NCBI GenBank assembly: GCA_965178125.1
Contig: OZ237747.1
Coordinates: 806,001 to 870,000 of the forward strand
DNA from: Bilabrum cf. latius
Lineage: Eukaryota
Reading direction: 5' to 3'
Length of the DNA: 64,000 bases
Shown here: positions 147-63,999 of the stretch, piece after piece
How positions within the stretch are numbered: the stretch's first letter is position 1
Layout: each line of letters starts with the position of its first letter
The notes under the pieces: generated by a model
Told to the model about the DNA's origin: nothing
The model's database searches: none
The model's input: only the letters and a program-made list of their open reading frames with translations
Made by a program: the position numbers and the translations under genes

Positions 147-1329
147 TCAGTCACTGCCATCCATTGGCGCGCTGCCTGTCGCAGACCCCGCTCCCTCGCC
201 CTCGTCCTCGCCCTCGTCATCCCCGACCAAATCACTCAGCAGCTGCAGCATAAAGGCTGGCCCCGAGCTTGCATCGAAGTTGATGGTGTTGGCATCGTGC
301 CCGTGCATGAACTCAGGCAGGACCTCCACACCCTTCAGCACCTGCACCTCGATCAGCCCAACGTCGTCCTCGTCCTCCCCAGATGCATCGGCAGAGGCAC
401 CGGATCCTCCCGTGCCCTCCTGGTCTGCTGGCAGCAGTCGGATCTCCATCTCGGCTTCGCCGTCCTCCGTGTCAAGAGAGCAGCGGAACGACTTTCCATC
501 AGCCCCCACAGATTCGGGCCAAAGCCCCGTGAATCGGTTGAATAGCTGCTTGATGGCCTCCAGGTCAGCAGAGGCCCTGCCAGTGGCAACTGTACCTGTG
601 CCAGCGGCAGAGGATGCAGATGAGGCAGAGGACGAGGAGCTACCCTGCGAGTCCAGCACTTGCATCAATTCCTGCTTTGTTCTCTCTGAGTGCTCCAGCT
701 TTCCCTAGAGGTCTTCCGCTCTGCTGCGCCACCTGCTCGCCTCGCCGTCGGCGCTTTGAAATAGTGCCGTCGACCGAATAACAGCTTCTGACGGGGCCGG
801 CGGATTCTCCTTCAGCGAGCGCAATTTATGGGATGTCTTGGCAAGCTTCTCTCGCGTCTCTTCCAATTCTTGTCGCAAAGCATCGACTGCGGCGCGTTCT
901 GCTTCCCGCTCCGCCGAAACAGCAGCTTCAAGTTCAGCTAGCTGCTCGGCTGCCTTTGAATTCTTCAAAGAGCGAAATTCATCTATTCCTGACTTGACAT
1001 CTTCAGATGCTTTAGCATACTGCAGATGGAGTGGCATACATACTATGCGATTCGGGATGGGGTTTGTGTACGATGTTACCGCGAGCAGACCAACGCAGCG
1101 TTTCGCTCACTTTTTCCGTAACACCCGAGGTATCACAAAGATTATCAAGCACAGATAGTGCTCTTTCGTGATCAAAGCCTGGCAGCACCGACGCATCACC
1201 AGCCCTTCCAGCCTTCGGAACCTGAGCGAGCATTCGCCCATCGCCAGCAAACACGCTCACCCCCGTTGCATCTAGCGCATTAGGGATAGACTCAGCGCGA
1301 GACGACTTCTTACCGGCTTTCTTCGGCAT
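147..1329 (-). CDS. Coiled-coil protein with C-terminal Csm1/Pcs1 (monopolin)-like RWD domain; exons 1329-1111 and 1019-147; 1 in-frame TAG
   Basis: ATG at 1329; phase-0 intron 1110-1020 (GTGAGC...CTGCAG, 91 nt). ORFs 705-1037 and 147-668 share a frame and are separated only by TAG at 705-707. A coiled coil is followed by 'LFNRFTGL...FRC...LPEFM...INFD...PAFMLQLL', which resembles Csm1/Titan9. Ends TGA. Confidence 0.55.
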
Positions 1330-1444
1330 AGCACGGAAAGTCTGCATCTTGCAGTTCGTCGATGAAACGGTCGGCAACTCTTTTCAAAAGTGCACGCTAC
1401 CCTGCACAGTTGCACGTGGGCCAAACTACGGCAACAGCAGGGCC

Positions 1445-2138: not shown

Positions 2139-2486
2139 TCCGTGGGGTGCATAGCGAACAGACTTGCACAGACGTTGTGTCGGCTCAGCTCCTCCAACGC
2201 CAACACCCCCACCCTCTTGAAAATCCGATCAGATGAGGCTAAGCGAGTATTGCGTAGCTACCCTTGGATACAGCCACGTGTTGATTGGCGCACTCTAAAC
2301 AACTGGAATGTAGACTGGGACTGACCGAGCCTGTCTCGAAAATGAAACCGGAAGTGCGGCATGGCCGCGATTTTGCCGCCAGAGCGTTCCTGCGGCACAA
2401 GATTCGAGCAAATACCAAGCAATTTTCTCGGTAAAGACTGCATTGTTTGGGATAAATCGCATTTGAGCTCATTTAAGTGGATCGAA

Positions 2487-5400
2487 ATGAGTAAGGAAGG
2501 CCAGGGGTCGGCAGCAAAGCCATCTGAAGCCTCCGGAGCGGCGTTCTCACCCCCTCCCCTCCCACCGAGCGCACCACCGCGGCTGAATGCCGCGGACGAG
2601 CCATTTTTCATGGCATTTCCTAGTAATGAGGATTTAGGGGCTGCTGGGGGCGTAGACATTGACCTGGGCGGGGCTTGGGGGGTTCGCAACGCGCAGCCAG
2701 TCGGATCCTCCGTTCTTCCCGGGGTTGTTGTGGGGTCTGGAGATGTAGTGGGCGGCGATTCGCATGCCGCGCCCGAACCAAGTAAGGCTGAGGATGGGTC
2801 CGGCAAGTTGGAGACGGAGTATGTACGATTCAAGAAGCGAGGGCGCGGCACGAAGGGATCGAGCGGCAGCGACCACGAAAGCGACGGAGACGGCGATGAT
2901 GAAGCAGAAGACGCCGCCGACGACGGATCTGATAGACAATCAGGTCACGATCAAGCTGCGGGATAGCCAGCATCTGGTGCCGGCTCCAGCGGTGGCGCAA
3001 GCCGCGCTGCCGATGCGCGGGGCAGCGGCGCCTCCGATTCTAGGCAAGATGGCGCGGCTCCTGCCGGCGGAAAGCCGCGCGATGCCGCAGATGCATCACC
3101 AGAAAGGGGTTCTGCTTAGCGCGGCGGCAAGTCTGGCGCGAGTAGCCGCGGCCGGGACCGGAAGGGGTCCCACGGCGGCAGCGGGCACGGTTTCAGCGAG
3201 GAGCTGCAGGATGGAGAGGGCAAGGGTTCCGGAGGCGGCGGCAAGTTCGATCCTTTGTGGGCCTAGGAAGAGGCAAGGGCCGCGGTGGAGGCGGGCGAGC
3301 TCCTCCTCGGCCGCATCCGGATCAACGGCAAGAAGCGCGACCAGGCCTACGTGATCATCCCCGGCATGGACGTGGACGTGCTCGTGGACGGGGTGAGGGA
3401 GAGGAATCGCGTCCTGAACGGAGACGTGGTGGCCGTGCAGCTCTCCGCTCCCGATTCGTGGAAGGAGAAAGGCGTGAAGATGTCTTCTTCCGCCTCGGAG
3501 GCGGAGGCGCCCAAGGGCTTCCAGAGGAGGCGGACGGTTCCGGGCGGCATCGCTGCGAAGGGTGCATCGCACGGTGGTGCGGGCGGTGGTGAGGACGGCG
3601 AAGACGGCGGGTCCACGCCAGCGGCGCCCACGCCGCTGCCAAAGGCAGAGGTCATCGCCGACCCTGGGCATGCAGGCCCTGCCAGCGGCAGCGGTGCGGC
3701 CACGGCCGGCGACGGCACGTGGGTGGAGGGCGGCGAGGAAGAGGAAGAAGAAGTTGTGCCGCCCACTCGTCACTTCGACAACACCCGGCTGTACGGCGAA
3801 GAGCACGAGGCCAACCAGCTCTGGAGACCGCGGTTTGACGTGGTGGCCGCGGAGGCCAGGCGCCGGGAGGCCGCGAGGCTGACTGCCTAGCCCGACGGGG
3901 AGGATGGGCCTGCGCTGGAGATGCCCCTGCTGCCGAGCCAGCTGCGCGGAGTGCCCGTGCCCCGGGACTCGGACCCCTACAAGCTTGCGATCGCGCGCGC
4001 CAACAAGATGACCGACGGTGGCCGGTTCCGGCCAACAGCCAGGGTCAGGGCCCTCATGGGCCTGGGTCACAACCGCATCGCCGTGGGCCTCCTCAGACCG
4101 ATGGGATGCCCGCCCAAGAAGGTGGACCACGCGGCCCTTCGTGAGCCGGTGCCTGCCAGTGACTGGAACCTGAGGCTGGAGCCCCTGGACGACAGGGTAC
4201 CATTCGTGATGGTGTCGGTGAAGGACGCCCCCGAGGAGTTCCTCAAGTGCCCCCACGACTTCAAGACCACGGTGTTCAAGGCCCGGATCTCAACCCGGTG
4301 GAACATCAGGCATTCGTTCCCGCAGGGGCAGCTGGACGGCGTGATCGGCGTTTCCGGCCAGATCGCGGCGGAAGAGGAGATGTACCTGATCCAGAACGAC
4401 ATCAAGGATGAACCTTTCTCCGATGAAGTCAACGAGGAGATGCTTCCATTCGCCTCCAAGGAGGTGGAGAAGGAGGACGGCACGATGGACAAGGTGCCGT
4501 GGCGCGCACCAGAGGAAGAGAGGGCGAGGAGGAGGGACTTTAGGGAACACAGGGTGTTCACCATCGACCCCACGACGGCAAGGGACCTCGACGACGCCCT
4601 GCACATCAAGCCTCTGGGGGATGGGCTGTACGAGCTGGGCGTGCACATTGCCGACGTGTCCTACTTTGTGGAACCGCACACGAACGTCGACGAGGAGGCG
4701 AGGGACAGGTGCACCTCCACCTACCTCGTGGGCCGAGTGATCCCCATGCTGCCGCGCATCCTCTGCGAGGAGCAGTGCTCGCTGAACCCCAACGTGGAGA
4801 GGCTCACGTTCTCGGTGACGTGGGTGATGAAGGAGGACGGCACGATGGCAGAGGACCATAAGCCCTGGTTCGGGCGCGGGATGATCCGGAGCTGCTGCAA
4901 GCTGGACTACCCCACGGCGCAGCACATGATCGAGGGATCCATCCACGACGGCATTGCGGACGGGAAGGACGGCGGGGTGCCGGAAGAGCTGTGGGAGGCG
5001 GCGCGTCGGCCGGGCGGAAGCCACACGGAGGCCGGAGTCATCCACGACGTGCTGGCAATGAACACGATCGCGGTGGCTCGGCGGGCCAAGCGATTCGCCA
5101 ACGGCGCGCTGGCCCTGCACCGCAGCAAGCTGAGGCTCAAGCTGGGCGAGGACGGTCTCCCGCACCAGGCCGAGACGTATCCCATCAAGGACTCGAACCG
5201 TCTCATCGAGGAGTACATGCTCATGGCCAACTACCTCGTCGCGGAGAAGCTGTCCATGGAGTGCGGAGAGATCGCAGTGCTGAGGATGCACCCGCCGCCG
5301 CTGCCCGACCGCGCAGGCCAGGTGGTGCAGATGGCCAAGCAGCTGGGACTGGAGAACTTCCGCTGGGAGGACGCGGGCAGCCTCCACGAGTCGCTGACCA

Positions 5401-6518
5401 GGATCGGGAAGGTGGCTCCGCAGGTGAGGGAGTTCCTAGAGACGCTCACCATGGGACCCATGCAGTCTGCGCAGTACTTCTGCACGGGCGATGTGCCGCC
5501 CACAGCGTGGGCCCATTACGCGCTGGCCATTCCCTACTACACGCATTTCACCAGCCCGATCCGTCGGTACGCCGATGTGATGGTGCATCGGCTGCTTCAA
5601 GCCTCTCTGGACGGCGAGGAGGCGATCGCGGCACTGAAGGCCACGGACTCTGCCAACCACGTGCGGCAGCAGTGCGCCAGGTGCAACGAGAAGAAGGAGG
5701 CCGCGAAGAAGGCGGGCGACGATTCGTCCAAGGCCTACATGTGCGTGTACCTGCAGCACAACCCCACGATCCTCGATGCTGCTGTGCACGACGTGCGAGG
5801 CTCCCGCTTCGCCAAGGCTGCCATCCCTTCGTGGGGTCTGGAGGCCCGGCTTGAGTTCGAGAGGTTTGGGGCGGAGGCCGACTTCCACGAGGAGAGTGGG
5901 ACGGTGACTCTGCGTCCCATGGTGCCTCCCGACGCACCCGAGGCCAAGGCAGCGGTGGCTAGTCTCACGAGTGAGGAGCTGGAGGCCATGGGTGGATCCA
6001 TGGACCCGCCGGCGCCAGGCAGCCTCTCCTGGGTCGAGAAGGATGGTGCGGCTGACGGTGCTGCTGCCGGGAGCGGTTCCGGTGCGGCTGATCCTGGTGC
6101 TAGTGATGCTGCTGGAGGCGCTGATGGAAGCGGATCCGTCCCCGCTCGCGTGAAGCCGTACCCTCTTGCGGTGACCCTGGGGGCGCTCAGCACATGCAAG
6201 GTCCTGCTGCTGGCCCGCACTGACGTGGTGCCGATCTCCTTCGAGGCCGTGCCGATGCCGCTGCTGGCGTGGCGCCGCGCGTGCCCGCCGGAGCGCGTGG
6301 CAGGCATGAAGGAAGAGGAGGCCAAGCACAGGCGCGGGCGAGACGGTGGGCGTGGCCGCGGCGGTGGTGGCGGGCATGGGCATGGGCATGGGCATGGGCG
6401 GCGCCGTGATGGGCATCGGGGTGGGAGGCGGCAGGAGAGGGGCAGGCGGGGGTCTGGGGATGGTGGGTCGTCTGGCAGCAAGAAGGGTGGCAGTGGGGCT
6501 GGGAGCTGGAGGGGTTGA
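2487..6518 (+). CDS. DIS3L2: DIS3-like exonuclease 2 (RNase II/RNB family); 4 in-frame TAG; alternative start at 2361
   Basis: ORFs 2361, 3285 and 3921 are in one frame, broken only by TAGs at 2964, 3117, 3264 and 3888. CSD 'GRIRIN...RNRVLNGDVVAV', catalytic 'FTIDPTTARDLDDALH', 'HYALAIPYYTHFTSPIRRYAD'; no PIN domain; ends TGA. Confidence 0.9.
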
Positions 6519-6854
6519 TTTGCTCGTTCCAATAGCCTGGTCGTGGGTGTATGCATGGTAATTGCCTGCCAGCTTATCAACAGGTAATACAGTACAGGTT
6601 GTATGGCTAGACTTCAGGTCGCATCCTATGGTGTGGTGCGTATCCGTCTGGACCCTGCCGCTGGGTCGCGGTCAGGGTGCTACCGTCAGTAGCACTAGGG
6701 GTTGTCCATGGAGAATCCCGGATCCGGGTTCGGCTTCGATACCATACACAACTTCCACATCAACTGCACGACACACCGAATTAAACCGACATTGTAATCC
6801 CAAAATACTTAGTATTACATCTGAAGCCGGGGGTAATTCCTATCGCGGAGTCCA

Positions 6855-9800
6855 ATGCCAGGAATCGATGAGCTCGTTGCCCAGCTAGGCTCAAGCGAGG
6901 ACGGCCAGCCTGAAGCAGCAGCCGAACAGCTATCTGACTTGCTCGTAGACTCCAATGATCAGAAATGGCTTGCAGTGGAGGCGGGTGCGGTCCCTGCACT
7001 AGTGGGGCTGTTGCGATCAGAGATTGGCCAGCTGGCCGAGAGCGCTGCACGGGCAATCAGCCACATCGCATGGGGCGACGATGCATGCAAGCAGGCCATC
7101 GCCAACGCACCAGGCGCCATCGCTGCACTGGGCGCGCTCATGGCATCCACCAAGGGGCACGAGGCGGAGCATGCTGCCTCGGCGCTGGCTGGCTTTTGCC
7201 GCAGCTCTGTGTCTCTACGGCAAGCGGTGGCCCGCGATGGCCACCTGGAGCATGTGCAGCGCATGTTGGCATCTGCCAGGGGCAATGAGGCGGAGAATGC
7301 TGCGTTGCTGTGCATGAATGTGGCAGCAGACTGTCTCGAGGGCAGGCATGCCTCACTGGATGCTGGCGTGCTACCAGGGCTGGTCAGGCTGCTCGTGTCT
7401 GAGAGGGGCAAGGAGGCCGAGTATGCGGCACGGGCGGTGGGCAGAGTCGCATGGGGCAAGTATGCGCGCAATTCGCATTTATCAGAAACGAAAGGCGCCA
7501 TCGCTGTCCTGTGTCAATACATGGCTCATGCTAGATAGAAAGAGGTGGAGCGCATCACAAATGCGATCGGCTCAGTATGCATTGAGTGTCGGGGGGTACT
7601 CCAATCAGGTAGTTCTGTGTTATCCTTGATTGCAGAGATCGTCCACACCGACGGTGAACCTGAGGTGGCCCAAGCCGCCCGCATTTTAGCGAGCATTTCT
7701 AGGTGTAATCAAGCCTGCAAGTCCGTTGTGCTAGCAAGCGGAACGGTACCGCGCTTGGTGCAGCTGCTGCGTTCCGGTGTTGGAGATAGAGCGCAGTATG
7801 CCGTTGAGGCAGTGCAGGCATTGGCTAGTGGCAGCGCAAGTTGCAGGCAAGCGCTTGTTAATGCAGGTGCAGCTACAACTCTAAGCTGTATAATGGAATC
7901 ATGGCAGACACCATTGCGATTGTGCGCTGCTAGAGCGTTTGGAAGCCTGTGCAAAGGCAACGCAGTCCTACTCGCCAGAGCCATCCCAGGTGAGAAGATT
8001 GATGGGATTCTTGCTGGGCTGCTATCGAGCGACAATAGGCAGGCCACACGTTCTACATTGCTTTGCGTGGCCATCGCTTGCAGTGGAATAGCCGGAGCAC
8101 ATCGATTGATACAAGCAGGTGCGTTGGTAGGACTCACCAGACTACTTCGCAAGAATACGGGAGAGCCCGCCTAGTATGCCGCGATTGCCATCAGTACAAT
8201 GTCTTACAGAGACACTGCCTATGAAGTTGCCGCGCTTGGACTCTCAAATGAAGGGCAATCCGATTGTCCTGGATCTGCTGTATCCGAGCGCAGTCACAGA
8301 GTGCTTCAGGCCGTTGCAAGCCTAGAGCTGATGCGCAGAGGTTGCAAAGGCTACCAGCGGATGGTGGGTTGCGACGGAAAGCTAGCGTACCTCATCCACA
8401 TGTTGAATTCCTCTCAGGATAATGAAACAGCATATGCCGCCGAAATTTGCTATCATGTTGCTCTAGGAACCACTGTGGGATGCCGGGCTATACTGGACAT
8501 TGGCGCTCTACCGGGTCTCGTCCTTGCGTTGGACCGAAAGAAACACGGTTCCAAAGCAGTCCACAATGCTGCAGCCGCACTCCAAGCAATTGCAATGGCG
8601 CCTTTCGGCCCATCTGCAATTGCTGCTACGCCAGGTGCTATTCATGCACTAGTGGATGCAATGTCGCACAACCCAAGCGGTATGGTACAGAGGCAGGCAG
8701 CGGCAGCTCTTGCAGGGATTGCAGCAAGCAGGCTATATACTCGAGACGCCCTCGTGCAGCCAGACGTTATCAAGGCCCTCATCAGTGCCATGCAATCAGG
8801 CGACAATGTACTGCAAGAGACCTGCTGTCACATTTGCCACCTGCTCGTGGATCGAAATCGAAGATGCAAGTAGACTTTGATTGACCTCAACGCTATGCCG
8901 ACGCTAGCTCGACTCGCAGATGCGTCAAATAGCTGGCTCATAGCGGAAAACGCCCGTGCTACTCTGGAGGCTGTGGCATACGGCGATAATTTGTTGTGCT
9001 CGTCGCCAATGCCAACGCAGAAGCTGATTGCGATATAGTCTCAATTGATTGCTGGTGATGACGTGGAGGCCTCGCGAGCCACTTGGCAGATTCTAGTTAT
9101 GGCTGCATGCGGAGGGAAGAGATTGTAGACGATAGCCAGCTCCGAAGTAATACATGCCTTGTTTGTTCGCATGCATTCACTTCCCGATCTCGCGTATACC
9201 GATGCCGAGAAGGCCATCAGCGCAATCATCAAGGGATCACACGCACGCAAGCGAGTCAGGCTTCACGGTGACTTAATCGGTTGCCTTGCAGAGCAGATAG
9301 AAGCGGTTACGTCGCATGAGTCTGTCTTGAAGGCATGTAATGCACTCGTGCTGCTGATGCGCGAGTCCCTTCTGCGTGATAGCACATTCCGAGATCGAGT
9401 GCTACCTGGTGTGGTGCACGCGCTGGGCCTCCCCAGCGTCAATGTCAGAAGCAGCGCGCTGGAGGTACTGTTGGCCGCATGCTTTGCATCCATGGAAGGT
9501 GGCGCTTTGGTATCACAAACCGCAGTAGTGCCGGCTCTGCGACACTCCATGCTGCTATCAGGGGCAACTGAGGACCACAAGAGGCGATCGCTGCAGGTGA
9601 TGCTGCATGTGCTGCGTCAGAGCGACGATGCTCGCATGGAGCTTGCCGGGAGCGGCGAGACCCTGAGGGCGGTGGTCGATGCCAGCAGTAACAATGGCGG
9701 AGATGTCCAGGAACTGGCCTGTCTGTGCTTGTCCTGCTGCCTGATGGGATCCGACGAATGCAAGCGGGCGGTTTGCGATGTAGGCGGGCTGAAGCCTGTC

Positions 9801-9920
9801 GTGGAATGCCTGCAGACATGTCGGGGTTGCCTGTCTTTGGAGCTGCGAGACGCGTTGCAGAGAACTGCAGAGGCCTCAGAGGAGTTCAGGCAGTCTGTTG
9901 TAGCAGCTGGCTTCCGGTGA
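6855..9920 (+). CDS. Armadillo-repeat protein (~1,021 aa); 5 in-frame TAG
   Basis: ORFs 6855, 7545, 8199 and 9159 are in one frame, with TAGs at 7536, 8172, 8871, 9036 and 9126. Repeated 'AGAVPALVGLL...AA.A+..+A' ARM motifs run across the TAGs; ends TGA. Confidence 0.85.
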
Positions 9921-9983
9921 CCACGTGAGTCATTGAAACAAGCAAGTAGACCATACGAAGATCCTAGCTCATTCAATCGTGTA

Positions 9984-10662
9984 TCAAGCAAACGGTGGCT
10001 TCCCCATGTCTCTAAGCAGCCAAAGGTACTGCACTGTCCTGGCCCCCGTCTCGTCTCTCACTGTCACCACCTCGACTGCTTCTCCATAGATCGAACTGTG
10101 GACCCTGCCCTTGGCTGGCAGTGCAGCGTGCTTCTTGTGCGATACACCAGGAGTATCAGTGCCGAGTCCTCCTGGCACTGTGCTAGTTGCAGCAGCAGCT
10201 TGCTTCTCGCTTGCAGGTTTGGCATTCGGCCCCGCAGAGTCACTTCGAACCTCAGCATGTCGCCTTTTCATCACGAACACCTGGAAAAGAACGTCCTTGC
10301 CCACCTTCGGCACGACGTCTACTCTCCTTGTGATCTCTAGCCCGCTTGCCGCCGCTGCATGGTACACCCTGGCTCCCTCGAGGGCGGTCTCGCACACGAT
10401 GAAGCGGCCGCTGCCGTCCCACTGCTCCCGCTCCACGCGTCTCATTGCGTCTTGCACACCGTGCCTGCGGGCATGCTTTGACGCTGCTGCGGTCGATGAC
10501 GCACCAGCCCCGCTCGAGGCAGGGGCCTCTGGCTCGGCAATTGCTGGCATGATGTCAGGAATGGGAGGGTATTTATCGGGCCATCCTCCCTCTGTCGGCT
10601 CATCGTGCTTGCGGGTGGTGCTGCGACCAGACTCGCTAGAGGCACGGACTGTGCTGCTGCTG

Positions 10663-10694
<32 letters not shown>

Positions 10695-11867
10695 TGAAGC
10701 AGGACCAGGCGCCGAACACAACAAATCTCCAGCAGACGCAGTGAGCCCTGAAGAGCAGTCGCGACCAGAAACAGCAGCCGTGCCAGTAGCATCGTCCCCA
10801 GCAGCTGCTCCCCCAGCCATACCAGAGGAAGGAGACTATTCCAATGGTGCATCGATCAGCAAGCGTGCAGCAGTGTTGCAATATGCCTCGATGCCTCCAC
10901 GAGCCTCGAACAAGCAGGCGGCGCTCTCGGCGTCGGCGGGCGCGCCACCAGCGTTGGGCAGGAAGTAGGGCGGTGTGCCCGTGACCAGCTGGAACCGCCT
11001 GCCCTCCGGCAGCACCTTCTCAGGCTCACGGAGGTCACCATGCCGGATGCGGATGCGAGGCATCACTGATGGGGCGGTGCCTTCGCCTGCCGCTATGCCG
11101 CCTGCAGATTCGCCTGCAAATGCACCGCCAGATTCCGTGGGTCCGAAGTCGGTTGCCGTGTCAAGCAGCTCGGCCAGCTCACCAAACTCGGCTTTCTCGG
11201 CTGGGACGCTCGAAGATGCTTTCAATTCGATGCTAGAAGATGTGTCGGTGGGTTTTGCAGCCATGATGCCCATATTGAAGGCAGCCGATCGTCGGGCCAG
11301 CCGAACCCTCGCTGCCTGTGCCTCGACGCCGATGCTGCGGCTGGATGGCAACAACCAGTTAACGAAGAGCAGTACGCTTCCAATTCCACAACCAATATCA
11401 GCATGAAGAATTTCCGTCATTCCGAGCCTGTGGGCCTCTCTCCACGCCACCCAAGCGGTCACCACGTCGTCGGTCGAGTACCGATGGCGCTTCCTGGGCT
11501 AGAGTATGCGCTATTTTCCAAGCGCACCGCACCATTCTCCGTGCATATATCCCTCCTTTTCAATGTTTGTCTCTGCAGTAGGCTCTGGGCCAGGTGCGAT
11601 CCAGCCTTTCAAGTCTGCCAGTTTCATGGTGCGTGCCCTCTTTGCGGCTGGGGGAGCGCCGTCAGATTTCGGGGCGCTTCTTGCAAGCGTACCCCGTCCA
11701 TTACACACAGTACATGGCTGTTTTATTACTGGGCGAGGGCCCTTCTTGCCGGATTTCTTAAATTCCATTTTCTTCGGCCTTGTTTCAACATGCCCTAGTC
11801 CATTGCATTTCCAGCACTGCCCAGGCTTCTTGCCATCCGCATATGACCCTACAGCGGCATCGTCCAT
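9984..11867 (-). CDS. SAM-dependent methyltransferase, TrmN6/YfiC (tRNA1Val m6A37)-like, with N-terminal CxxCxG zinc-finger pair; 3 in-frame TAG
   Basis: 'CWKCNG...CTVCNG', 'RIL*PRKRHRYSTDDV', motif I 'DIGCGIGSV', motif IV-like 'TGTPPYF'; TAGs at 11511, 11499 and 10836; ends TGA. Confidence 0.75.
10652..10693. repeat. (CTG)n trinucleotide tract encoding poly-Ser in the methyltransferase
   Basis: Directly visible; reads (AGC)n on the coding strand. Confidence 0.85.
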
Positions 11868-12005
11868 ATTCGATTCAATGGTTTGCGTATCGGAGCGCAA
11901 CAAATTAATCACCAGTGATGCTTTAGTGGCCCTCTGGAATGTCGTGACAAGTGCAACTTGCTTGGTCCATGATTCCCGACATCGATAATAAATAAAACGG
12001 GCGCC

Positions 12006-30971: not shown

Positions 30972-31115
30972 GCCCTACCTGCAGAGAAATGAAGCGACAG
31001 AAAGTACATCAAACACGTCATCGCGATGCCAAGGTTGATGAATGACGAGTGAGATTTCGACCGGAAACGACTGCTCAATTTGTATTGCATAGGATAAAGC
31101 CTGGACGTGAATGAA

Positions 31116-39244: not shown

Positions 39245-39600
39245 GCCTCTAACGTTTTGCACCGCGTTTTCGTTTACGAAACGCCGCAGCTTTCTATTCG
39301 AAGCAAGCACTACAGCCAGCAATGGCGGTAGTTTTACCAGATGATTTCTAAAGCAAGTATGAACCTCACTACAGCTGCACTCTTGCTCTTCGCGTCGTAG
39401 GAAGTCTGCGGCTGGTGCGGCGATGAGCCGTGTGCTGCGGCCGCGGCCGCCGGGCGCCGCGCAATTCAACGGGACACGTGGGGCCTCTAGGCCTACCCGG
39501 AGCAATATGGGATTCAACACATGTCACTGTTGCCAAGGAGGCCATCGAGTCGCACCAGACCCAATACAATTCGGCCCATCAAGAACTATGAGCGGCACTC

Positions 39601-41297: not shown

Positions 41298-41427
41298 TGT
41301 CCCTTCAGTGTCGCGGGGTGAATGCTTGAAGTTATTGTCACCCTACAAAGTGCCGCGAGTCTGGTATTGGTGCGACCACCCGCATCGCGATGTCCCGTGC
41401 GATCCAAAGTTCTCGTCGGGATTTACA

Positions 41428-43709: not shown

Positions 43710-44020
43710 ATCTGCATGACTACTGTCTTGCGCGCTATACCTCGACACTTTTATTCCTCAAGTACGATAGAATTATCAGCTCATGATGAGCCAAACATAC
43801 CTGTAGCACATACTATGCATTCATGCTGCGTCGCACATATCCCCGTCACACCGTGACCCCTTCGCCGTCCCGGTTCCGGCTCGGCGCTCGGGTCCGCCGG
43901 CGGCATCACTTAAAGCAGCGTCTCGGGATATACCATTCAAGCACTTTATAGGCCATATCATTAATTGGGGTTGCTATCAAGTATTTGAGACGCGATTGCA
44001 GCCTCTAAAGGGTTGAAAAC

Positions 44021-53675: not shown

Positions 53676-54441
53676 TCATCCACGGCCGGCTGCCGGGTCC
53701 TGGCTGCCAGCGTCCTCCTCCGACAAATCAACTTCTAGCGCCTCTTCCAGCTCCTTGGACGCTGCTGCAACTGCATCCTCAATATCATCAGCGGACTCCG
53801 CTGCACCAGTTCCTACCGACAGCTGTGCCTCCAGCTCTGCCGTCTCCCTCATGACATCCTCTGCAGTGAACTCTGGCAGCAGCTCAATCCATGTCTTTGG
53901 CTCGCCGCGCGCCTCTCTTTGGTCCCTATGCAATTTCAAGTATTCGCGAAGCTGCAACGCTTTCACCGATTTAAGCTTCTGCTCGGGAGTGTTTAGGATG
54001 TAGTTGTCGAAGCCGCCAACCTTATCCATCCATTTCATCACGTGGCTTGTGACAAGAACCTTGACGGGCTACTCAAGAGTATCACTCCAAATATGCTTCC
54101 ACCGGGCGTTCGGCTTCCATGATCTTCGGCTACTGCGATGCTTGAAAATAATGGAGACAGCCAGACAGCCAACGATGGCAACAACAATACTCAGAAAGAC
54201 TTTTCGGTTTGGAGAACTTTTCTCACGCATTCATGGCATGTGAGCGCTTGTTACCAAAACGAATCCGTTTTCCAGCCATTAGCCCTCGCTATCCTTTTCT
54301 GTATGGCACAGAGGGAATCTCAAGACCATTCAATTCTGGAAGAGATGGCAGTCGCTTCCAATATCCTTTTGGCAGACGCTTCCTCAAGCCTCGCTACAGC
54401 GGCTGTACTTTGCCAATCTTGTAGGCAACTTTAAGCGGCAT
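53676..54441 (-). CDS. MRPL28: Mitochondrial ribosomal protein bL28 (~223 aa); exons 54441-54227 and 54132-53676; 3 in-frame TAG
   Basis: 'RKG*RGLMAGKRIRFGNKRSHAMNA|SRRSWKPN...IWSDTLE*PVKVLVTSHVMKWMDKVGGFDNYILNT'; phase-2 intron 54226-54133 (GTGAGA..CGCAG, 94 nt); ends TGA. Confidence 0.85.
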
Positions 54442-54646
54442 TATGTGATTGGAACGTGAGAAAGAGCCGTGGCGATGAGGTGCACTTCGTCCATTTATAC
54501 AGTGCTGTATACGGTTTTGCAACACCGCGTGACATCGTGCGACCAAGAATACCGCGATTGGGGGACAGCGACCGCGAAGATGCGAGGCGCAGTTGCTCCT
54601 ACGCAACGCTTTGCGTAATCCTACGACTTGCATCAATTGATCCAGT

Positions 54647-57600
54647 ATGGGATGTTTTCCATCCTCGCAAGTGACGTAGGACATCGAATCCCTCCAAGGA
54701 GGCTAGATCGCTTCGAAATGCTCCGACGCGTCGAGCGAACCGGTGAGCACAAACATTCGATTCCTTGAACATGTGGTGCCGTTTAGTTGAACAAAGGCTA
54801 AGAATCATTTGATTGTTGCGCTGATTATGATGAATACCAAAGTTGATAGCGGAGAAAGTGCATAGCGCGCGTTCCTGGCGAGCTCGTACGTTGTTCCATA
54901 CCTGTCGACTACTGCCGTTCATTGCCGCAGGTACTCGCCGACGTACGCAATCTTGACTTCAGCAGACAATTGGATTATGCTTCAGGTGGCTACGTGCCTT
55001 CTGATGCTTTGGATGGCGTGTATCGCGGAAATGGACCCGCTACTGAGTCGGTCTTCCTGGCAGTTTGCGCGGCCAGAACGGAGGGTTCTCGGGCTTTTTT
55101 CCAGCCCAGCTACGGTGATTGTGACATAGTAGCTTAGTACTTGCTCCAGAAGGTATGGGGCGAAAGGGTTCTTCGGAAAGCAGGTCAGGGAGCTGAATCG
55201 ACTGGCAGCCAAGAGGGACCCACAACCATCTCAACTTCGTCTTCACATGGTGCTGTGAATCCTCACCTTCATGACGAGCGCCTTTTAGAAGTCCTTCCGT
55301 TCATTGCAAAAGGCGGCGAAGGCGCAGGTACCTTCTACCTGCAGGTCCAGTGGAAGCAGGATTGCCTCGGTTCGGGTGAAGAAATGGACCCAGCACAAGC
55401 CTCGCCCGGCGGCTCTAGTGGATTCTGGGTACTTCCCAGAAGGCATTTGCCACCTCTTGTGCGGTCTCCTAGTCTAATTGGCTTGTACGCCCAGCTTTAC
55501 CCGCTTTTGGGGCGAGGAAGCCTTGAGCTACCCACCGCAATGGACGCTGTTGGTCGGGCAGTAGCCTCCGCTGCGGTACCTGGACAGGGCGTTAGCGCAA
55601 GCCAGAAGGAATAGCAATCGGACAAGAAAGATTCATTGGTGGCAGGAGGGCTGGGCACAAATGGAACCGCCCGATCCTCGTCTCTCCTTGGAGAGAGTTT
55701 TGCTAATGCGACCAGCGACTCCAACGCAGCGATTCGCGTTCGACATTCTGAGCTGCGATCCAGCAGCCGTGTAATCACCCGCGCGTCTTCCCGGGTCCTT
55801 GCAGAGAATTCAAGCTTTCCCTGCAACTAGTCTGAGGTGACCGACGCAAGCCAGCTTCAGCGTTCCGGTGCAGCAACGGGTGTCTGGAGCGCATCGCTGG
55901 CGAAGCAGATGACCTCTGGCATGATCACGGACGCTCTGCCGCGATACGATTCGACGTGCTCTGACGCTGACAGATCAGCGGCATAGTCTTGCATGGATGC
56001 GCCGGGCGCCTCCTCCAAGGGCAGGACCCCCGTGAGAGCAAAGGATCGAGACACTGCATCCCAGAACGTCGACAAGGCCTCGTCCCCTACGTCGCAGGCG
56101 GCGGGGCGGGCAGCGAGCGCACTCGGAAATGCTTCTAGCATTAGATGCGAGAACAAGCAGGAGAACGCTTCGTCGTCGTCCTTCCTAGCAGCAGCAAGCC
56201 GAGGCATGGACGCTCAGCTCTAGCACCAGCACTCTCGCGATGCAGAGCTTGCGACATCGAACAGCACTGAGAGCCGAGCTCGGGCTGGGTCTATGGCCTC
56301 GCTGAGCTCGTCTGGGAAGCGCAGGACGCATCGCTGGGCAAAGCACGTGTCGGGACATGGCGGCGAGAGCCTTGGTGCGTCCGCCTCTGCGGCTGCTCGG
56401 CGAGCTTCCGCTGGCATAGAGGCGGAAATGCGCGGCGGTGACCTGGACCAGGCAGCGAATGAGACGAATGAAGGGGTTGCACAGGCCCGGAACTCCAACA
56501 ACTTGGCCACTTCTCCCTCAAATGGCGCATACAATGTCCCGATCGGGGCGGAGGTGGGCCAGCGGACAGCCAGCGGGGCGGGTACGCCTGGGCTGGCTGG
56601 ATCTGACGAAGTTACCACGGCCGGACTCAACAACGTGGTGTCTGTGACCTCTGCAGGCGGCAGCCTCGGCCATCTCTCTGAGAATTACAGCAAAGAAGGT
56701 TCTGGTTCTGGAGACTTCCAGATGAACGTGAACATGTAGCAGTGTACGGTGGGACCAGGGCGGTCCAAGCTGACTCTGCCTGGTATTGCTAGCAAAGGGC
56801 AGAAGCTGGGACAGCGGGCACCAGCCGGCAGCAAGAACTAGCTCCAAGCCAGCAAGAAGTACGCCCCCTTGCTCATCCACGAGCGCGCAGCCGCGCACAC
56901 TTCGTCGTCTCGCCGGGTTACCGCGGCTTTCTCCATCAGTGGTGCTGGCGGGGTGCCGAGGCGCCGCGGTGACGCCGGTGCCGGCTGTGCCGCGCTACTG
57001 CAGAGAAAGCCAGCGGCGATCTACTCGAAGCGGCCAACGAGCAAGTTACCTTCTCGCGACCGTGGAGATTCAGGATATTCCTCATCGTAGACGGGGACAA
57101 AGGAGGCCAGCAGCTCGCTCGCTAGCCTAGGGGACATGTCAAAGGAAGAGTTCGCGGCTGCGCCTGGCATGTTCGGTTCCTACGATGGCGCAATATCCAT
57201 GCCTGGGTCCGTGACGGCTCGTTCGGCCGAGGCATCGTCATTGGCTGATCTATCGGAGCATGGCACGATCGCCGCGTTGTCCCGCGGTCGGCAGACTAGA
57301 GAGGTCACATCGGGATCGGCAGGATCTCATTTGGGCCTCTCCGTGAATGCAAGCACTGCGGTGCACAGCTCAAGCGACAACGTGATCGCCCCCTACAGCG
57401 AGGCAGGCAGCATGGGGAACGGTTGGATCGGATCAGCCCGCGCACCGATCCGATCTGATCCGTCAGATCCAGGCGAGGACAGGGAGTCTTCCTAGGAGGC
57501 TGCAGTCAGGGACGGCAACAGCATGGAAGGTGGCATCGTCATGATGGCGCGCCACAGCCGCACTGGTAGTGGTGGCAAGAACCCCCACGGCCGCCGTGGC

Positions 57601-59199
57601 GTGTTTGCTCTGGCCGTGGAGCAGCTGGAGCCCGTCGACGAGACGAACGGAGGGTCTGCTTCCTGCCCCGAGCAGGACTCCATGAGCACCAGCGGGATCG
57701 TGAACTCGAGCGAGAGCAGGCAGGGCTCGTCTACCACTGGGTCGGGCGGGCGCCCTTCGCACACGCGCAGCAGAAACGGCAGTACGGGAGCTCGCAGTGA
57801 CCGGAGTGGCACCATTCAGACCAGTCAGAAAGACAAGGAAGGCAATAACAACAGCAGCAGCAGCCGGTCACAGAAGACGCCCACTGGATCCACATGCAGC
57901 GGTGAGGCAACTGGAGGTCCCAGTGGGCCGGGTAGTCATCACTCTGGCCCTCTGCGGAGCAGGGACTCATCCGGGATCATCAATCGTCTCATGCACGGCT
58001 CGAGCTCAAGCACGGGCTCCGGCTCAATAGCCGGAGTGGCCAGCAAGTCTGCTGTACTGCACCAAGCCAGTGCCAGGACGAGGATACAGGCAGGGAGGCG
58101 TGCTGCTTCAGTGTCCCGCAGCCAAGACAAGGAGGGCAGTGGTCGTTCTGTGGCCTGCAAGCAGTCCGATGGGGCTGTCAGGGGCTCTGAAGGCTCCCAG
58201 CTCTCCCGCACGAACGGGAGCACGAGGGGCCTGCATCACGTGCAGCAGCTGGCCATAGAAGAGAGCAAAGGAGCCGACGAGGCAGCGAGTGGCAGTTCTA
58301 CTGGCAGAAAGGCGAAGCCTGTCTCCGATGGGGCTGTCACGGATGGCAACAAAGGCCTTTCTGCCGGGGTCGACGAGGAACAGCACGGTAACCCGTTCGG
58401 CTCCTCTGACGAGAGCTCTTCGTCTTCGCGGGCGAGTCGCGGCCGGTCATATTCTATGGCTCGCATGCTACCAGGCACTGCCGGTCCCCTCGGGCAGCAC
58501 CGCTTCAAGCAAGCTCTGCAGTTCCGACAGAGTTTCGACGGGCATGGCAGCAGTCTAGCTATGCAGGGCCTGGGCACGCATTCCGAGGCGGTGCCGACGG
58601 ACGGCATGGCATCGACAAAGGAGGACTCAAAGCCCACATGGTTGCCCAGGCGGAAGAAAGCCCCATCGCAGAGGGCGTACGGCTTCAGGTTCAGGTATGC
58701 GAGGTGCCGCGTGACTGCGGCTCCATCCCGTGCTGCAGACGGCATGCGGTCAGTTCTCACGCTGCGCGTGCAGAAGCCAAGCATTGCAGGCAATGGCATG
58801 CCTTCGATTGCTGGGGCGTCGATGGAAGTTGCGATGGGGTCTGCCGAAAGCGGGGGCAACGGGAGCGATAGGTATCAGCTCCAGGCACCCCAGAGGCCTG
58901 AATCGCCTCCGATATTGCGTGCCAAGAGCCAAGCCGTTTCGCCCGGGCAAGCGGTGGAAGAAGAGGTCAGCTCGACACTCCTGAGGCCGATCGAGGCGCT
59001 TGCATTGCAGCGCGTGGCGATGGGAAAGGACAAGGACATGGCGGAGCACGCAGTAATTGCGATGACTCCGCTGTTTCTGATGCGAATCCCCAAGCTCCAC
59101 GCTGGCAAGTGGCTCGAGTATTTCAGGAAACAGGAGAACCAGGAGGCGCTGGACGGCGCGCTTGGGATTCAGGGCGGCGTGGTGGTCTCGATCATGTGA
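54647..59199 (+). CDS. Hypothetical ~1,454 aa Ser/Gly-rich protein with MGC N-terminus (possible myristoylation/palmitoylation); exons 54647-54742 and 54931-59199; about 11 in-frame TAG
   Basis: Phase-0 intron 54743-54930 (GTGAGC..CGCAG). Eight ORF-track fragments share one frame, separated only by TAG; ends TGA. Confidence 0.72.
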
Positions 59200-59709: not shown

Positions 59710-62700
59710 TTACTGTCCGATGCGCCTGCGCTTTCTGCTGCGACCATTGCGAGGTCGTCCGGCTTCAGCCTCCCTTTCTTGGTCGAGATCCGGATCCTAT
59801 CGCTCGACACCTTCTGTCGATGCTACCTCGCCCCCCCCAGCATATTGTGACTGTGCCGCCTCATCCGGATGGCCGATCCCCCCACCTATTCTACGCCTTG
59901 CTAGGCCCCGGCCCCGGCCCCGACCCCGGCTCGATCTGGCAGACGGCCGGTGAGCCCGCCGCCTCTCCGCAGCTGTTTGCGCACGAGCTCCATCGCCGCC
60001 GTGTGCGGCAGTGCCAATGCCACCGCGTCCGGCTGTGGCGTTGGTCGTGTCACCACGACTGGCATCAATTGCAGGCTCTTCTCCTCCTTCCTCGTCTTCT
60101 TCCTGTTCATGTCTCCGCTTCCGACCCCTGCTTCCAGTGAAGCTGATCAGCGAGCCCGGTGCAGCTGGAGCACCCACCGACGCCGGGCTAGCACTCTGGC
60201 CAGTCTCTACCGCTGGCCTGCTCTGCTGTATGTCGCCCACACCGGAATCCTAGTGGGGGTCTGAGCTGGAGCTGGAGCTGGAGCTGGAGCTGGAGCTGGA
60301 GCTGGAGCTGGAGCTGGAGCTGGAGCTGGAGCTGGAGCTGGACGCAGCCGGAAAATCGGTGCCTTCACCGCTGGTTGATGCACCAGTCGCTGGATATGAT
60401 TCATCAAGTAGTCCAGCGGCTGCGTGCAATCTAGGTGGCGTCCACTCTGACCTCTCTCCTGAGCTTGTACCTGCACGTGTCGATACCATGAAGGCCCTGC
60501 GGCGGCCGGCGGTCCCAGAATCGATGGATTGACTCCCCATACCCTCTGATTCATGCGCTGGACCCCCAACAGGATCATCCTACCTCGCTCGACCTGAAGT
60601 TGTCCTGCGTGCTACAGGTGCAGGTGCAGGTGCAGGTGCAGGTGCAGGTGCAGGTGCAGGTGCAGGTGCAGGTGCAGGTGCAAGTGCAAGTGCAAGTGCA
60701 GGTGCAGGTGTAAGCATGAAATCGGCAACTGAGGCCTGATGCTACTCGCGAGGCACCATTCGGTCAACACTGCTAGTGCGATACCGGGTGCGCGATTGAT
60801 CGCTTGGCTCTCCCAGCATATCCCCTGCCAGTGGCGACGACCTAAAGTCGATAAAGTCATCCGCCGCTGTAGTTGCCATTGCTTCAGCCGATTCGATCCC
60901 GTATATATCAGAATCCAGGGACATGATCGACGCAGGGGAGGAGCTGCCGCGCATCCGCTCGTGAACGAGGGGACTGTCTCGTCCAGATTCGTCGTTCAAG
61001 CCGCTAGCAGTCGTCTCTTCCATCTAGCTTCGAAAGCGCTCGCCGTAGATAGCAGGTGGTGGCGAGCCGGCACCAGAGGCATATCCGAACGGACTGAGGT
61101 CAACTACATCAGCTACTAGGTTGGCATTGTGGCCCGCTGGCATTCCTAGTTCGTGCGCTCGACCAGCTCTTGGCCCAACAATGCGCAGCCTGGCACGATC
61201 TGCTTGGGGCGACTGATTGCCTGCGACCTCTTCTGCAACACCATTACTTTGCCAAGCGCGTGTAGAGGCAGGTTGTGGTCTGCATACCATGGGTGCAGAA
61301 GGTGACAGCCACTACAATAGTCTGTCAATGGGCCCCAAAAAAGGACCAGAAGACCCAGAGCAGGGCTGAGAGCGGCTGATTCTTGCCAGAATTCTATCAA
61401 TGCCAGCTTCACGGAGTCTATCCAGGTCGACTAGGCACAGGTCGACCCAGCGAATCAGGATGTCAGCTGCATTGCTACACAATCCAGGCAACGCTTGCAC
61501 TTGCGGGTCGTGCAGAGCTCGAAATATCCACTTCAAGATCGTATCGCTATACAGCCGCGATGCCGGCACCCCTTCATGTTCCGTGATGCGACAAAGCAGG
61601 GAGCACACAGAGCTTGTCATTGCCACCGACTGGCCAGGTGATGGCTATGAGAACAACGAACAAGCTCTGAGGCCGGCCGGCAAAACGCTTCGACTGCAAC
61701 TCAAGCTTGATGCAAGCCTATGCAAAATATCACAAGCCTATACGCGGTCCTGAACAGAGTAGGTGGATGTATCAATGCCTTGCACCACTGTCGGGATGAT
61801 TGCAGGTGCAACATATTCCACAAAGTAGCCTGGAATCTGCTCAACAAATCGCTGAAGGGGGGATAGCAGGCGCTGAAATCCCACCTAGTGACCTCGAACA
61901 AGTATGCTTACCATCGAATCGCTAAATACATGTGATGCAATCCCACGATGTGCTAGGGCGAGCGCATACAGCAGCTCAGATGCACATGGAAACCACTCTG
62001 CAGGTGCTTCACTAGATGCTGCCGAGAGCAACTGGATCAAGCCAAGACGCACAAGCTGCTTTTTAGCACTGTGCTTGAATCGCTTCTAGCTCAAACAGCA
62101 TTGAATGAGCTTCAAGGCTGCTCCCCAGACACGCTGACCATGATCGCTGCCGCCTTCTGGGGGCAGTCTGCGTAGCAGTCGAACGAGACTACGGAGTCCT
62201 CCTGAGGCAGCAAACGTTCCGAAGCAAACGGAGTTTGCTTCCAGCAGCTTTGTAGCAGCACCAATCGACCTAATACACACTTCGTGCGATTTAGCTTCAA
62301 ACTGCTGCACCAAGGCCAGAACAAGGCCAGACTTCCAGGCGTCCTTTGGTCGCACTTGAGGAGCCCGTGGCCCGGCGATGAGGCACAATACTGACTTGAC
62401 TTCGTGCTGGGAGCCCGATCGAAGATGGTCGCGCAGCTGTGTGTGCACAAGGGCAGCTCTGGTGGACTGCAGAACCACATCGGACATCGGCAAGCTTCGC
62501 AGCGCGCACATTGCGAGCTCCGCTCCGGCACCCTGCAGGTTGTCCAACATGGAATACACTAGGGTTGGGCAGCGCTCGAGGCGCTGCAGCAGCAGCCTCT
62601 TGAAGATCCGCGACAGGTGAGTCGCCGCCTGAGGCGCAGGATATGCAAGCCTGCCTTCACGTCGTAGTCGCTGCTCCGTGCTGTCTGTGATCCAGACTAG

Positions 62701-63999
62701 CTCCATGGCAGTCACGATGTGCCAGCCGCCGAACCTGTTGATGCCTCGGAGCAGATCCAGGACGTCGTTTGATGCCTCGACTGACCCTAGATAGGCTCGT
62801 TCTACTTGCTGCGCGACAATGCTCATGACAGGGGCCGGAAGACGCACAGTGTGACTCCTGAGTCTGCCGCTCATAACGAAAGCCATCTTCAGCTGGTGCG
62901 CTGCTTCGTGCACGGTCATCCTCTCCTTCGGGTCGCCGCGCAGCAGAGCGGTCACCACATTGACAATCTCATCTACCTGACAGTACAGCGCGGACCCGCC
63001 CGCCAGGTGAACGGGACCGTCCTCGATTGCCTGCTGGATGGTGCCGTACGTGAGCGCAGTGCCGTCGTGAAGGGCTGCGGGGTATGCCTCCCCGAACGGA
63101 TGCATTCCGCCGGTGACCAGCATATGGAGGAGAATGCCGAGCGACCACGACGCCTGCTTGCCGTACGGAATGCACATGTCATCGCTGCTTGACTGCGCCA
63201 TGCGCCATGCGTCCAGCACCTCGGGTGCCAGCATCGAGTGGTCTGGCCCTGCCGAGTCCCCTCCGCCGACCAGGTCTCTGTACTTGACCGCATTGAAGCT
63301 GGCCTCGATCGCAGCTTTTGTGTGAGGCGAGGTCGATGGTGAGGACGAATCGCCTGCCCTCACGAGGGGGAGCTCCACCATCAATGCGTCTTCCATCTTC
63401 GCGATGACTGGGGTACCCGCCGCAGCCTAGAGATCGTTCGCCTCCCCTCGGTTCATGTCCAGCAGCACGCTCTGCATGCCCAGGTTGCGGTGCACCACCC
63501 CGCGATCGAACATCGTCTACACTGTTTGGGCCAGGCTGGAAGCCCAGTGCATCAGCTGCTCGCTGGTGGGCGGGCATGTCGAGCTCCTGGCGGCAGCTGC
63601 AATGGTCGGGGCAACTGGCACCAGCCCCATGACATGGGCGAGTCGGACGCCGTCTGGCTCCGCAGCGCCACTGGCAGCGGATGGAGCTGCATCGTGTGAC
63701 TGTTGTGTCCAGCTTGGAGGGTATGCAAAGCCGGCCGGGATGGCCAGGTGTTCCACATTGGCGTCTTTAGGCAGCCTGTCGAGGATGTCGACCTTCCGCT
63801 TGCGCTTGTTGAGCTAGGACTGAGATGCAGCTGAGCTCGGATCCCATAGTATGCTTAGTTGAAGCTCACACGCGCTGTGTAGTTGCGCGGGGTTTTCGTC
63901 GCTCCCAAAAGCTGCACCAATCTCGTCAGGAACACGGTAGCACCTGAACGACAGCTCGGCGCCTTGCTTGGACAGGATCAACTTGCCTCTCTGCGGACA
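59710..63999 (-). CDS. 5'-partial protein: kinase-fold (probable pseudokinase) domain, ARM/HEAT-like repeats and a low-complexity tail with basic NLS-like motifs; about 13 in-frame TAG
   Basis: One frame open from the window edge to TAA(TGA) at 59712-59710. 'GVVHRNLGMQSVLLD', 'MLAPEV', 'KQASWSLGILLHMLVTG..HPF', 'LLRGDPKERMT'; 'SGGLRSLVRLL'; C-terminus RKRRRIGQ. Confidence 0.75.
60263..60342. repeat. (GAGCTG)n hexamer microsatellite, about 13 units, encoding poly-Ser on the minus strand
   Basis: Directly visible. Confidence 0.9.
60615..60710. repeat. (CAGGTG)n hexamer microsatellite, 16 units including three CAAGTG variants, encoding Pro-Ala repeats on the minus strand
   Basis: Directly visible. 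Confidence 0.9.

Follow-up and report, generated by a model that had tools for sequence, protein, structure and literature searches.

Evidence that UAG is read as glutamine, with UGA and UAA kept as stops, in a GC-rich eukaryotic genome segment

We analyzed a window of 64,000 nucleotides (nt; positions 806,001 to 870,000 of contig OZ237747.1), GC-rich along its whole length (~60%), in which eukaryotic genes lie tightly packed on both strands and nearly all hold in-frame TAG codons. From the letters alone, an earlier inspection (the sequence-only reading) had proposed that UAG is reassigned from stop to glutamine (Gln, Q) across this stretch. Evidence at the DNA, mRNA and comparative levels within these 64 kb supports a role of UAG as a sense codon for Gln, and cytoplasmic translation very probably reads it so, with UGA (in most genes) and UAA staying terminators. 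The window holds the following genes and open reading frames (ORFs), with lengths in amino acids (aa) and TAGs counted in frame.

147..1106, minus strand: coiled-coil/acidic protein ORF, 319 aa, no Pfam match; 1 TAG (first base 707); ends at TGA.
1587-2138, plus strand: small ORF, 183 aa, between the preceding gene and the DIS3L2-like gene, with a coiled-coil-like start and no assigned family; 4 TAGs.
2346..6518, plus strand: DIS3L2-like exoribonuclease with CSD2 and RNB domains (Pfam RNB E=1.2e-91, OB_Dis3 E=2.3e-15); 4 TAGs (2964, 3117, 3264, 3888); ends at TGA.
6837..9920, plus strand: Armadillo-repeat protein (Pfam Arm E=7.7e-27); 5 TAGs (7536, 8172, 8871, 9036, 9126); ends at TGA.
9984..12074, minus strand: methyltransferase-like ORF; 3 TAGs (first bases 11513, 11501, 10838); ends at TGA.
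11973..14519, plus strand: membrane-protein-like ORF, 848 aa; 2 TAGs (12516, 13599); ends at TAA.
15895..22224, minus strand: 2109-aa ORF with TmcB-TPR and PAS domains (TPR_TmcB E=8.3e-26; PAS_9 E=5.9e-9, residues 510-597); 11 TAGs, one of them (first base 20595, aa 544) inside the PAS match; ends at TGA.
23248..27627, minus strand: cyclic-nucleotide-binding-domain protein, 1459-aa ORF (Pfam cNMP_binding E=2.4e-15); 5 TAGs; ends at TGA.
27861..30029, plus strand: membrane-protein-like ORF, 722 aa; 3 TAGs; ends at TGA.
30168..31121, minus strand: short-chain dehydrogenase (SDR; sniffer/CsgA-like; Pfam adh_short E=6.8e-21); 6 TAGs (first bases 30977, 30908, 30728, 30653, 30587, 30302); ends at TGA.
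31098..33077, plus strand: HCF101-type Fe-S carrier, laid out as an N-terminal region, an Mrp/NUBPL ParA domain and a DUF971/GBBH-like_N domain (Pfam ParA E=7.6e-73, GBBH-like_N E=1.1e-9); 4 TAGs (31437, 31446, 31701, 31935); ends at TGA.
33709-33795 and 33907-34036, plus strand: two GT..AG introns of a small gene, their joints seen in contigs of runs X6 and X7 (runs described below).
35234..39523, minus strand: Zn(2)Cys(6)-type regulator-like ORF, 1429 aa (weak Zn_clus match, E=8.2e-4); 18 TAGs, including a TAG-TAG doublet (38848/38845); ends at TGA.
39601-41136, minus strand: ORF containing a gene with no TAG; intron 40999..41090 (GT..AG on the minus strand, CT..AC on the plus strand), seen in X5, X6 and X7.
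41692..43709, plus strand: hemerythrin-domain gene (Pfam Hemerythrin E=6.5e-9) with intron 41692-41819 and an ORF (41784-43709) to 43709; no TAG among 32 Gln codons; ends at TGA.
44009..48306, plus strand: paralog of the 35234-39523 gene; exon to 44699, intron 44700-44836, exon to 48306; 8 + 4 TAGs, those of the second exon at 46423, 46444, 46480 and 47230; ends at TGA.
48673..53439, plus strand: EFL1/Ria1 ribosome-assembly GTPase (Pfam GTP_EFTU, EFG_C; spliced X5 contig); intron 48673-48759, exon 48760-51146, intron 51147-51340, exon 51341-53439; coding TAGs 51023, 53320 and 53413; ends at TGA.
54223..54804, minus strand: ORF with a bL28-like N-terminal motif at its end; 3 TAGs.
54847..59199, plus strand: serine-rich ORF, 1450 aa; 10 TAGs, the first (54847) at the ORF border; ends at TGA.
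59710..63999, minus strand: kinase-like/ARM-like ORF that runs off the window (weak Pkinase match, E=5.9e-5); 13 TAGs; ends at TAA.

With the standard code, no stop-to-stop frame of the window reaches 1000 aa, the longest being 875 aa. Reading TAG as sense yields eight frames of at least 1000 aa (2109, 1459, 1450, 1429, 1429, 1390, 1161 and 1027 aa), and the same reading applied to 100 dinucleotide-preserving shuffles of the window returned a largest ORF of 587 aa and a mean of maxima of 411 aa, as compared to the 2109 aa observed. Treating TAA as sense lengthened no gene ORF, and frames grew indiscriminately with TGA as sense, because TGA is the commonest stop trinucleotide. Across 18 ORF segments (~16 genes, 17,354 codons), we counted 99 TAG, no TAA and no TGA in frame; the other two frames of the same DNA contain 7.5 TAG, 3.2 TAA and 16.2 TGA per 1000. 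TAG accounts for 12.9% of TAG, CAG and CAA taken together, with CAA and CAG standing at 184:487. Pfam matches to ParA, adh_short and PAS_9 run across TAGs. In-frame TAG is hence confirmed as a real feature of these genes, far beyond chance.

The individual TAGs singled out in the sequence-only reading lie in the frames it gave (31935, 30906-30908, 30585-30587, 30300-30302, 51023, 53413, 54289-54291, 11499-11501 and 44387/44426/44450). Its hand count of about 108 is approached once the bL28-like ORF (3 TAGs) and the small ORF 1587-2138 (4 TAGs), both left out of our 99, are included. Some of its statements on genes fared less well. The DIS3L2-like gene, presented as a conserved gene with TAGs, does contain four, all of them outside CSD2/RNB in the low-complexity N-terminal part. 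The name bL28m has only an E value of 0.3 to the N-terminal motif of bL28 in the PDB behind it, with no Pfam or NCBIfam match, and 'TrmN6-like' was not established, that ORF giving weak NCBIfam methyltransferase matches only and no match in Pfam or the PDB.

The amino acid inserted was sought in homolog columns. In the HCF101-type protein, the GTGDI[TAG]ITLG column holds Q in 90 of 120 homologs; in the SDR, KPF[TAG]RNV holds Q in 99 of 150 representatives, and Q is the commonest residue at VR[TAG]L (48/150) and EE[TAG]LK (16/150). In EFL1, Q stands in all 59 homologs at EK[TAG]RTL, where human EFL1 (PDB 5anb) has Q too, in five of the five nearest relatives at MAF[TAG]T (BLAST-anchored columns) and in three of the five nearest at HRG[TAG]AR. 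Four sites that the sequence-only reading had named as typical Gln positions (DMPPGTGDI[Q], KPF[Q]RNV, VR[Q]L and EK[Q]RTL) are borne out by these figures. Structures in the PDB aligned to the SDR and Mrp domains by themselves were too remote to settle the TAG columns.

To combine columns, we summed log-odds in a Codetta-like manner over the ten TAG columns to which 20 or more homologs aligned, excluding sequences of more than 80% identity. Q scored +12.1 bits, H -5.2 and K -5.6. A control on 770 columns returned the standard meaning for 53 of the 55 sense codons represented by at least four columns; the two misses, AGT and CTT, had four columns each, and CAA was assigned to Q at +7.1 from seven. 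On the columns of this window, codon inference gives TAG as Q, which the sequence-only reading expected of the whole assembly; TAA and TGA are absent from the reading frames counted.

Gene ends point to the codons that still terminate. Among 16 genes, 14 end at TGA and two at TAA; in two ORF segments, the TGA that seems to end the frame belongs to an intron. The TGA of EFL1 lies at the position where human EFL1 ends and that of the SDR falls within one residue of the end of its best homolog; UGA remains a terminator. TAA was absent from all 17,354 codons, whereas a TAA:TAG ratio equal to that of CAA:CAG would predict ~37. Of the ten TAA junctions flanked by at least 100 aa on both sides, every one is out of frame with a gene, antisense to one or upstream of one. 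We also considered TAA 1584, in frame between two plus-strand ORFs, as a sense codon and rejected it, as the upstream ORF looks non-coding. With moderate confidence, UAA remains a terminator as well.

Transcript-derived contigs show what becomes of the TAGs in mRNA. Contigs of four sequencing runs (X1, X5, X6 and X7) were compared with positions 33500-53499. X1 is a DNA run; X5 and X7 belong to one study and X6 to another, both separate from the DNA runs X1-X4 (one organism label). No run is recorded as RNA, X5 was automatically guessed to be 'probably DNA', and X5-X7 are called transcript-derived solely from their GT..AG joints; unspliced X5 contigs are indistinguishable from DNA. Such joints occur in X5-X7 at 33708/33796, 33906/34037, 40998/41091 (minus strand), 41691/41820, 44699/44837 (in both X5 and X7), 48672/48760 and 51146/51341. 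The X1 contigs (35776-47662 and 47817-53499, 0 differences) run uninterrupted through five of these seven introns and show no joint anywhere; those listed do not reach across the two introns at 33.7-34.0 kb. Given joints in X5-X7 and none in X1, the joined contigs derive from spliced RNA.

The spliced contigs retain the TAGs. One X5 contig, joining 48760-51146 to 51341-53499 with 0 differences, contains the three coding TAGs of EFL1, and a second (3694 nt; 0 differences over its listed part, 44837-47662) contains four TAGs of the 44009-48306 gene. The other eight TAGs of that gene lie in an X6 contig (43931-44650, 0 differences), and an unspliced X5 contig (35776-39414, 0 differences) covers 15 of the 18 in the 35234-39523 gene. 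No letter difference at a TAG is listed between the contigs of the four runs and positions 33500-53499, where the sole listed differences fall within a repeat at 34.5-34.8 kb. As the TAGs stand unchanged in spliced contigs, editing to CAG and splicing-out are excluded for the covered genes, within the limit that contigs lose rare variants, which bears on editing. Both processes had been named in the sequence-only reading as ways in which its proposal could fail; a single one of its TAGs, 51284, was found to be intronic, lying within 51147-51340 according to the transcript contigs, and is not coding.

Related organisms carry TAG as well. A 712-aa public protein (P0121), the single match of a search with the C-terminal exon of EFL1 that was swamped by low-complexity words, is 85% identical to the second EFL1 exon and stops at the residue before window TAG 53320. 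A second protein (P0280) is 92% identical to the SDR over 83 aa, starts two codons after TAG site 30908, ends on the residue directly preceding TAG site 30653 and has Q opposite window TAG 30728. With ends so placed, both are fragments of the kind that standard-code gene callers leave from a genome with TAG at the same sites.

Scanning metagenomes with the EFL1 alignment returned 61 loci. Two of them, L001 and L002, come from two different public metagenomes and share an 895-nt overlap at 100% identity, which puts this TAG-reading relative in at least two environmental data sets. Their EFL1 is 67-72% identical to that of the window at the amino acid level and has three in-frame TAGs opposite window CAG (LAG[Q]LRYMD, RxII[Q]EVNV and GQHxS[Q]T) as well as CAG opposite window TAG 51023, such that four of four TAG sites are paired with CAG. 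L002 has an intron just before a conserved 13-residue segment, in the same place as window intron 48673-48759. Among the 59 loci aligned to a full-length relative, L001 and L002 are the only ones whose stops are all TAG and all opposite a query residue. L012 and L023 have TAGs opposite gaps only, L023 also one TAA opposite an alignment gap only, and the remaining loci have either no in-alignment stops or a mixture of stops of the sort that introns produce; no in-frame TAG occurs in the GC-rich loci L017, L024 and L027-L029. At least two further related lineages carry in-frame TAG, one of them known solely from environmental contigs. Three or more diverged members of the lineage can be counted so far: besides the window organism, there is one relative with 85-93% protein identity and one from the environment with ~70% identity in EFL1.

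Homolog columns, the Codetta-like sum, exchange of TAG and CAG with two relatives, and spliced transcripts all agree with UAG as Gln, as the sequence-only reading had it. Its claim of a genome-wide code is an extrapolation from one 64 kb window and fragments of relatives.

A number of observations weigh against this interpretation. At the NF[TAG]VN column of the SDR (30587), which had been put forward as a Gln site, A (35 of 150 representatives) is commoner than Q (29), and another SDR TAG sits in a gap-rich loop. The EFL1 site MAF[TAG], also put forward, holds up among the nearest relatives, as given above, but among 79 distant homologs, most of them Mortierella-type fungi, 52 have E. Three TAG columns of the HCF101-type protein outside its ATPase core have V, L and E as the commonest residues. 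In the alignment of the two paralogs at 35234-39523 and 44009-48306, a pair too divergent for the comparison to be informative, 21 TAG sites face R six times, S five times, L three times, Q once and five other residues once each. The case for TAA as a stop is built on its in-frame absence and on two gene ends without a homolog anchor. ARAGORN and Rfam found no tRNA gene of any kind in the window and eRF1 is not encoded there, which leaves both the decoding tRNA and eRF1 unseen.

How UAG would be decoded can be modelled on other codes of this kind. According to the part of Panek et al. (2017, PMC5304391) drawn on here, a code with UAG alone as Gln requires a CUA-anticodon tRNA, which a single mutation separates from tRNA-Gln(CUG). 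By analogy with the codes treated there, a tRNA-Gln(CUA) differing by one base from tRNA-Gln(CUG) would read UAG but not UAA, and the N domain of eRF1 would have lost its affinity for UAG and kept recognition of UAA and UGA. An ordinary tRNA-Gln (CUG or UUG) might instead read UAG near-cognately, with an eRF1 that no longer recognizes UAG and no suppressor tRNA. Near-cognate readthrough by tRNA-Gln is reported in standard-code organisms (PMC13192750), and the window shows no tRNA with a CUA anticodon, but then it holds no tRNA gene at all. The share of TAG among the Gln-family codons and its use at conserved sites speak against such decoding; a UUG reader would moreover be expected to accept UAA as well, whereas no TAA stands in frame. 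Where the tRNA has been identified in lineages with UAR (UAA and UAG) as Gln, namely Tetrahymena, Condylostoma and Spironucleus, it is tRNA-Gln(CUA), as the same part of PMC5304391 states. We regard near-cognate decoding as unlikely.

UAG could also be ambiguous, read as Gln inside genes and as a terminator near some transcript 3' ends, as in Condylostoma or karyorelicts. Nothing direct favors this. Contigs cannot show transcript ends, only the ends of EFL1 and the SDR are anchored by homologs, and a gene ending at TAG would pass unnoticed, its ORF call extending to the next TGA or TAA. Against it, the invariant EK[TAG]RTL site of EFL1 lies eight codons before TGA, and the tail that follows, RTLARKK, matches the last residues of human EFL1 in the alignment; this UAG, close as it is to the 3' end, is therefore read as sense, which argues against termination that depends on position. 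Both TGA and TAA, furthermore, still serve as terminators. Ambiguity of this sort strikes us as distinctly improbable.

A sense codon for a residue other than Gln, e.g. Glu, Arg or Leu, would draw on the adverse columns listed above: E is commonest at two TAG columns among distant homologs (39 of 120 in the HCF101-type protein, and MAF[TAG] of EFL1), L at one, and R is the residue that faces TAG most often in the paralog alignment. Yet over the ten summed columns only Q scores above zero, the three strongly conserved columns (GTGDI[TAG]ITLG, KPF[TAG]RNV and EK[TAG]RTL) are Q, and close relatives exchange TAG only with CAG (4/4) or Q (1/1), making another residue very improbable. Artefact or decay—sequencing or assembly errors, pseudogenes, editing to CAG or intron removal—can claim the one intronic TAG at 51284 and is hardly credible, as X1 DNA contigs and the X5/X7 and X6 transcript contigs are letter-identical over the genes compared with no difference listed at any TAG, pseudogenes would be expected to show ~215 TGA and 42 TAA alongside 99 TAG by the off-frame proportions where none of either is seen, and the TAG sites are conserved in relatives.

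Decoding of UAG as Gln being the preferred reading, the question of whose code this is turns on the HCF101-type gene. Its best matches among named eukaryotes are oomycetes, Cafeteria roenbergensis and Tribonema, and the protein groups with Cafeteria and environmental sequences rather than with plastid HCF101. In a FastTree phylogeny of the ParA domain, the query fell within a clade of 19 tips (support 0.95), among which Cafeteria roenbergensis alone is named. IQ-TREE (LG+C20+F+G4, a quick run on this single gene, with a long query branch of 0.61) recovered a 5-tip clade with Cafeteria roenbergensis (SH-aLRT 83), nested in a 38-tip clade with oomycetes and Tribonema (SH-aLRT 88). No rRNA was found in the window; a region-restricted EFL1 search gave mostly fungal named matches of no use for taxonomy, and an ESM Atlas search with the RNB domain returned generic RNB clusters only and no taxonomic lead. 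The resemblance to bicosoecid, Cafeteria-like stramenopiles noted in the sequence-only reading is consistent with this one-gene tree, at moderate support, and a Cafeteria-related, bicosoecid-like stramenopile is a plausible identity for the organism.

Further features of the window were recorded in passing. In the HCF101-type protein, the ATPase and DUF971 are separated by a long insert of low complexity (~residues 380-600), and the N-terminus of the protein looks like a possible targeting peptide. The paralogs at 35234-39523 (minus) and 44009-48306 (plus) lie 4.5 kb apart in divergent orientation, with 363 of 909 and 70 of 189 aligned residues identical; close to the C-termini, the two match almost completely over one stretch (GGLVRVRGRFDPIVCSLGAPMRKQIAAAIDA...), as opposed to only ~40% identity in the remainder, which suggests a recent gene conversion of that segment. 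Positions 34464-34840 are multi-copy, with an X1 word depth of ~378 versus ~19 elsewhere and a high depth in the transcript runs too; many contigs stop there with differing flanks, and it matches no Rfam family or tRNA. In appearance, this stretch is either a dispersed repeat or the end of an exon conserved within a family. Rfam detected no other family in the window.

The pattern of UAG as Gln with UAA and UGA as stops corresponds to NCBI table 15, and table 6 has UAR as Gln. The code variant itself is not new; its occurrence in a probable Cafeteria-related clade appears undescribed. We found no report of nuclear stop-codon reassignment in stramenopiles, Bigyra or bicosoecids in open-access text and bioRxiv, supplements aside. 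In a stramenopile review (PMC11412368), 'genetic code' occurs in the reference list only, and the P10K database paper, in the part available, treats codes for ciliates only. The suggestion of an undescribed independent reassignment made in the sequence-only reading thus holds for the probable stramenopile lineage, as far as open-access text goes, and not for the code. It is about an even bet that this is the first nuclear stop reassignment in stramenopiles and an independent origin of a code that decouples UAG (Gln) from UAA (stop), in GC-rich, TGA-terminating heterotrophs related to Cafeteria.

Nuclear code changes are rare outside ciliates, and codes in which UAG and UAA differ in meaning are rarer still, being known from a handful of lineages according to the portions of PMC11687900 and PMC5304391 that deal with them. 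Another independent case would be one more instance from which to learn how eRF1 and tRNA-Gln come to tell UAG and UAA apart, which is also relevant to genetic-code engineering, and for this one there are transcripts, genomic DNA with introns, and both closer and more distant relatives. Were it confirmed, genomes of the clade, whether culturable or assembled, would let the changes in tRNA-Gln(CUA) and eRF1 behind the decoupling be dated and set beside standard-code neighbours. There is also a practical side: standard-code gene callers split the proteins of the window organism at each TAG, and annotations, BUSCO-type completeness scores and phylogenomic matrices for its lineage will therefore be wrong unless a TAG=Gln table is used. 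In public protein collections, the proteins of this lineage are systematically fragmented at TAG, as in P0121 and P0280.

The closest known counterpart is the nuclear code of Iotanema spirale (Fornicata), in which UAG is Gln and UAA and UGA are stops (Panek et al. 2017, PMC5304391, in the portion used). As in the window, UAG alone has moved to Gln with UAA a terminator, so that the two UAR codons are decoupled; a tRNA-Gln(CUA) and an altered eRF1 would be predicted for both. For Iotanema, that portion of the paper gives a T32G change in the GTS motif of eRF1 and a tRNA-Gln(CUA) that was predicted and not found. The two differ in that Iotanema belongs to Metamonada, whereas the window organism is a probable stramenopile; UAA is the main stop of Iotanema, whereas TGA ends 14 of 16 genes here at ~60% GC; and Iotanema is known from a transcriptome only, whereas here there are genomic DNA, introns and related lineages.

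The sections of McGowan et al. (2024, PMC11687900) on nuclear codes list UAG alone as Gln in Iotanema spirale, Protocruzia tuzeti and two phyllopharyngean ciliate lineages. Protocruzia and the phyllopharyngeans resemble the window in having UAG as Gln and UAA unreassigned, with independent and fairly recent origins, but they are ciliates, a known hotspot of code change. UAR is Gln in many ciliates, hexamitin diplomonads (Hexamita), Ulvophyceae, Streblomastix and Amoeboaphelidium, according to the same sections. These codes share with the window a change from stop to Gln and the interchange of TAG with CAG; in them UAA is Gln too, whereas here TAA is in frame nowhere in the 17,354 codons and ends two genes. 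The ambiguous codes of Condylostoma, karyorelicts and Blastocrithidia likewise place standard stop codons inside genes, but the window keeps two dedicated stops, and the UAG eight codons from the end of EFL1 is a conserved Gln.

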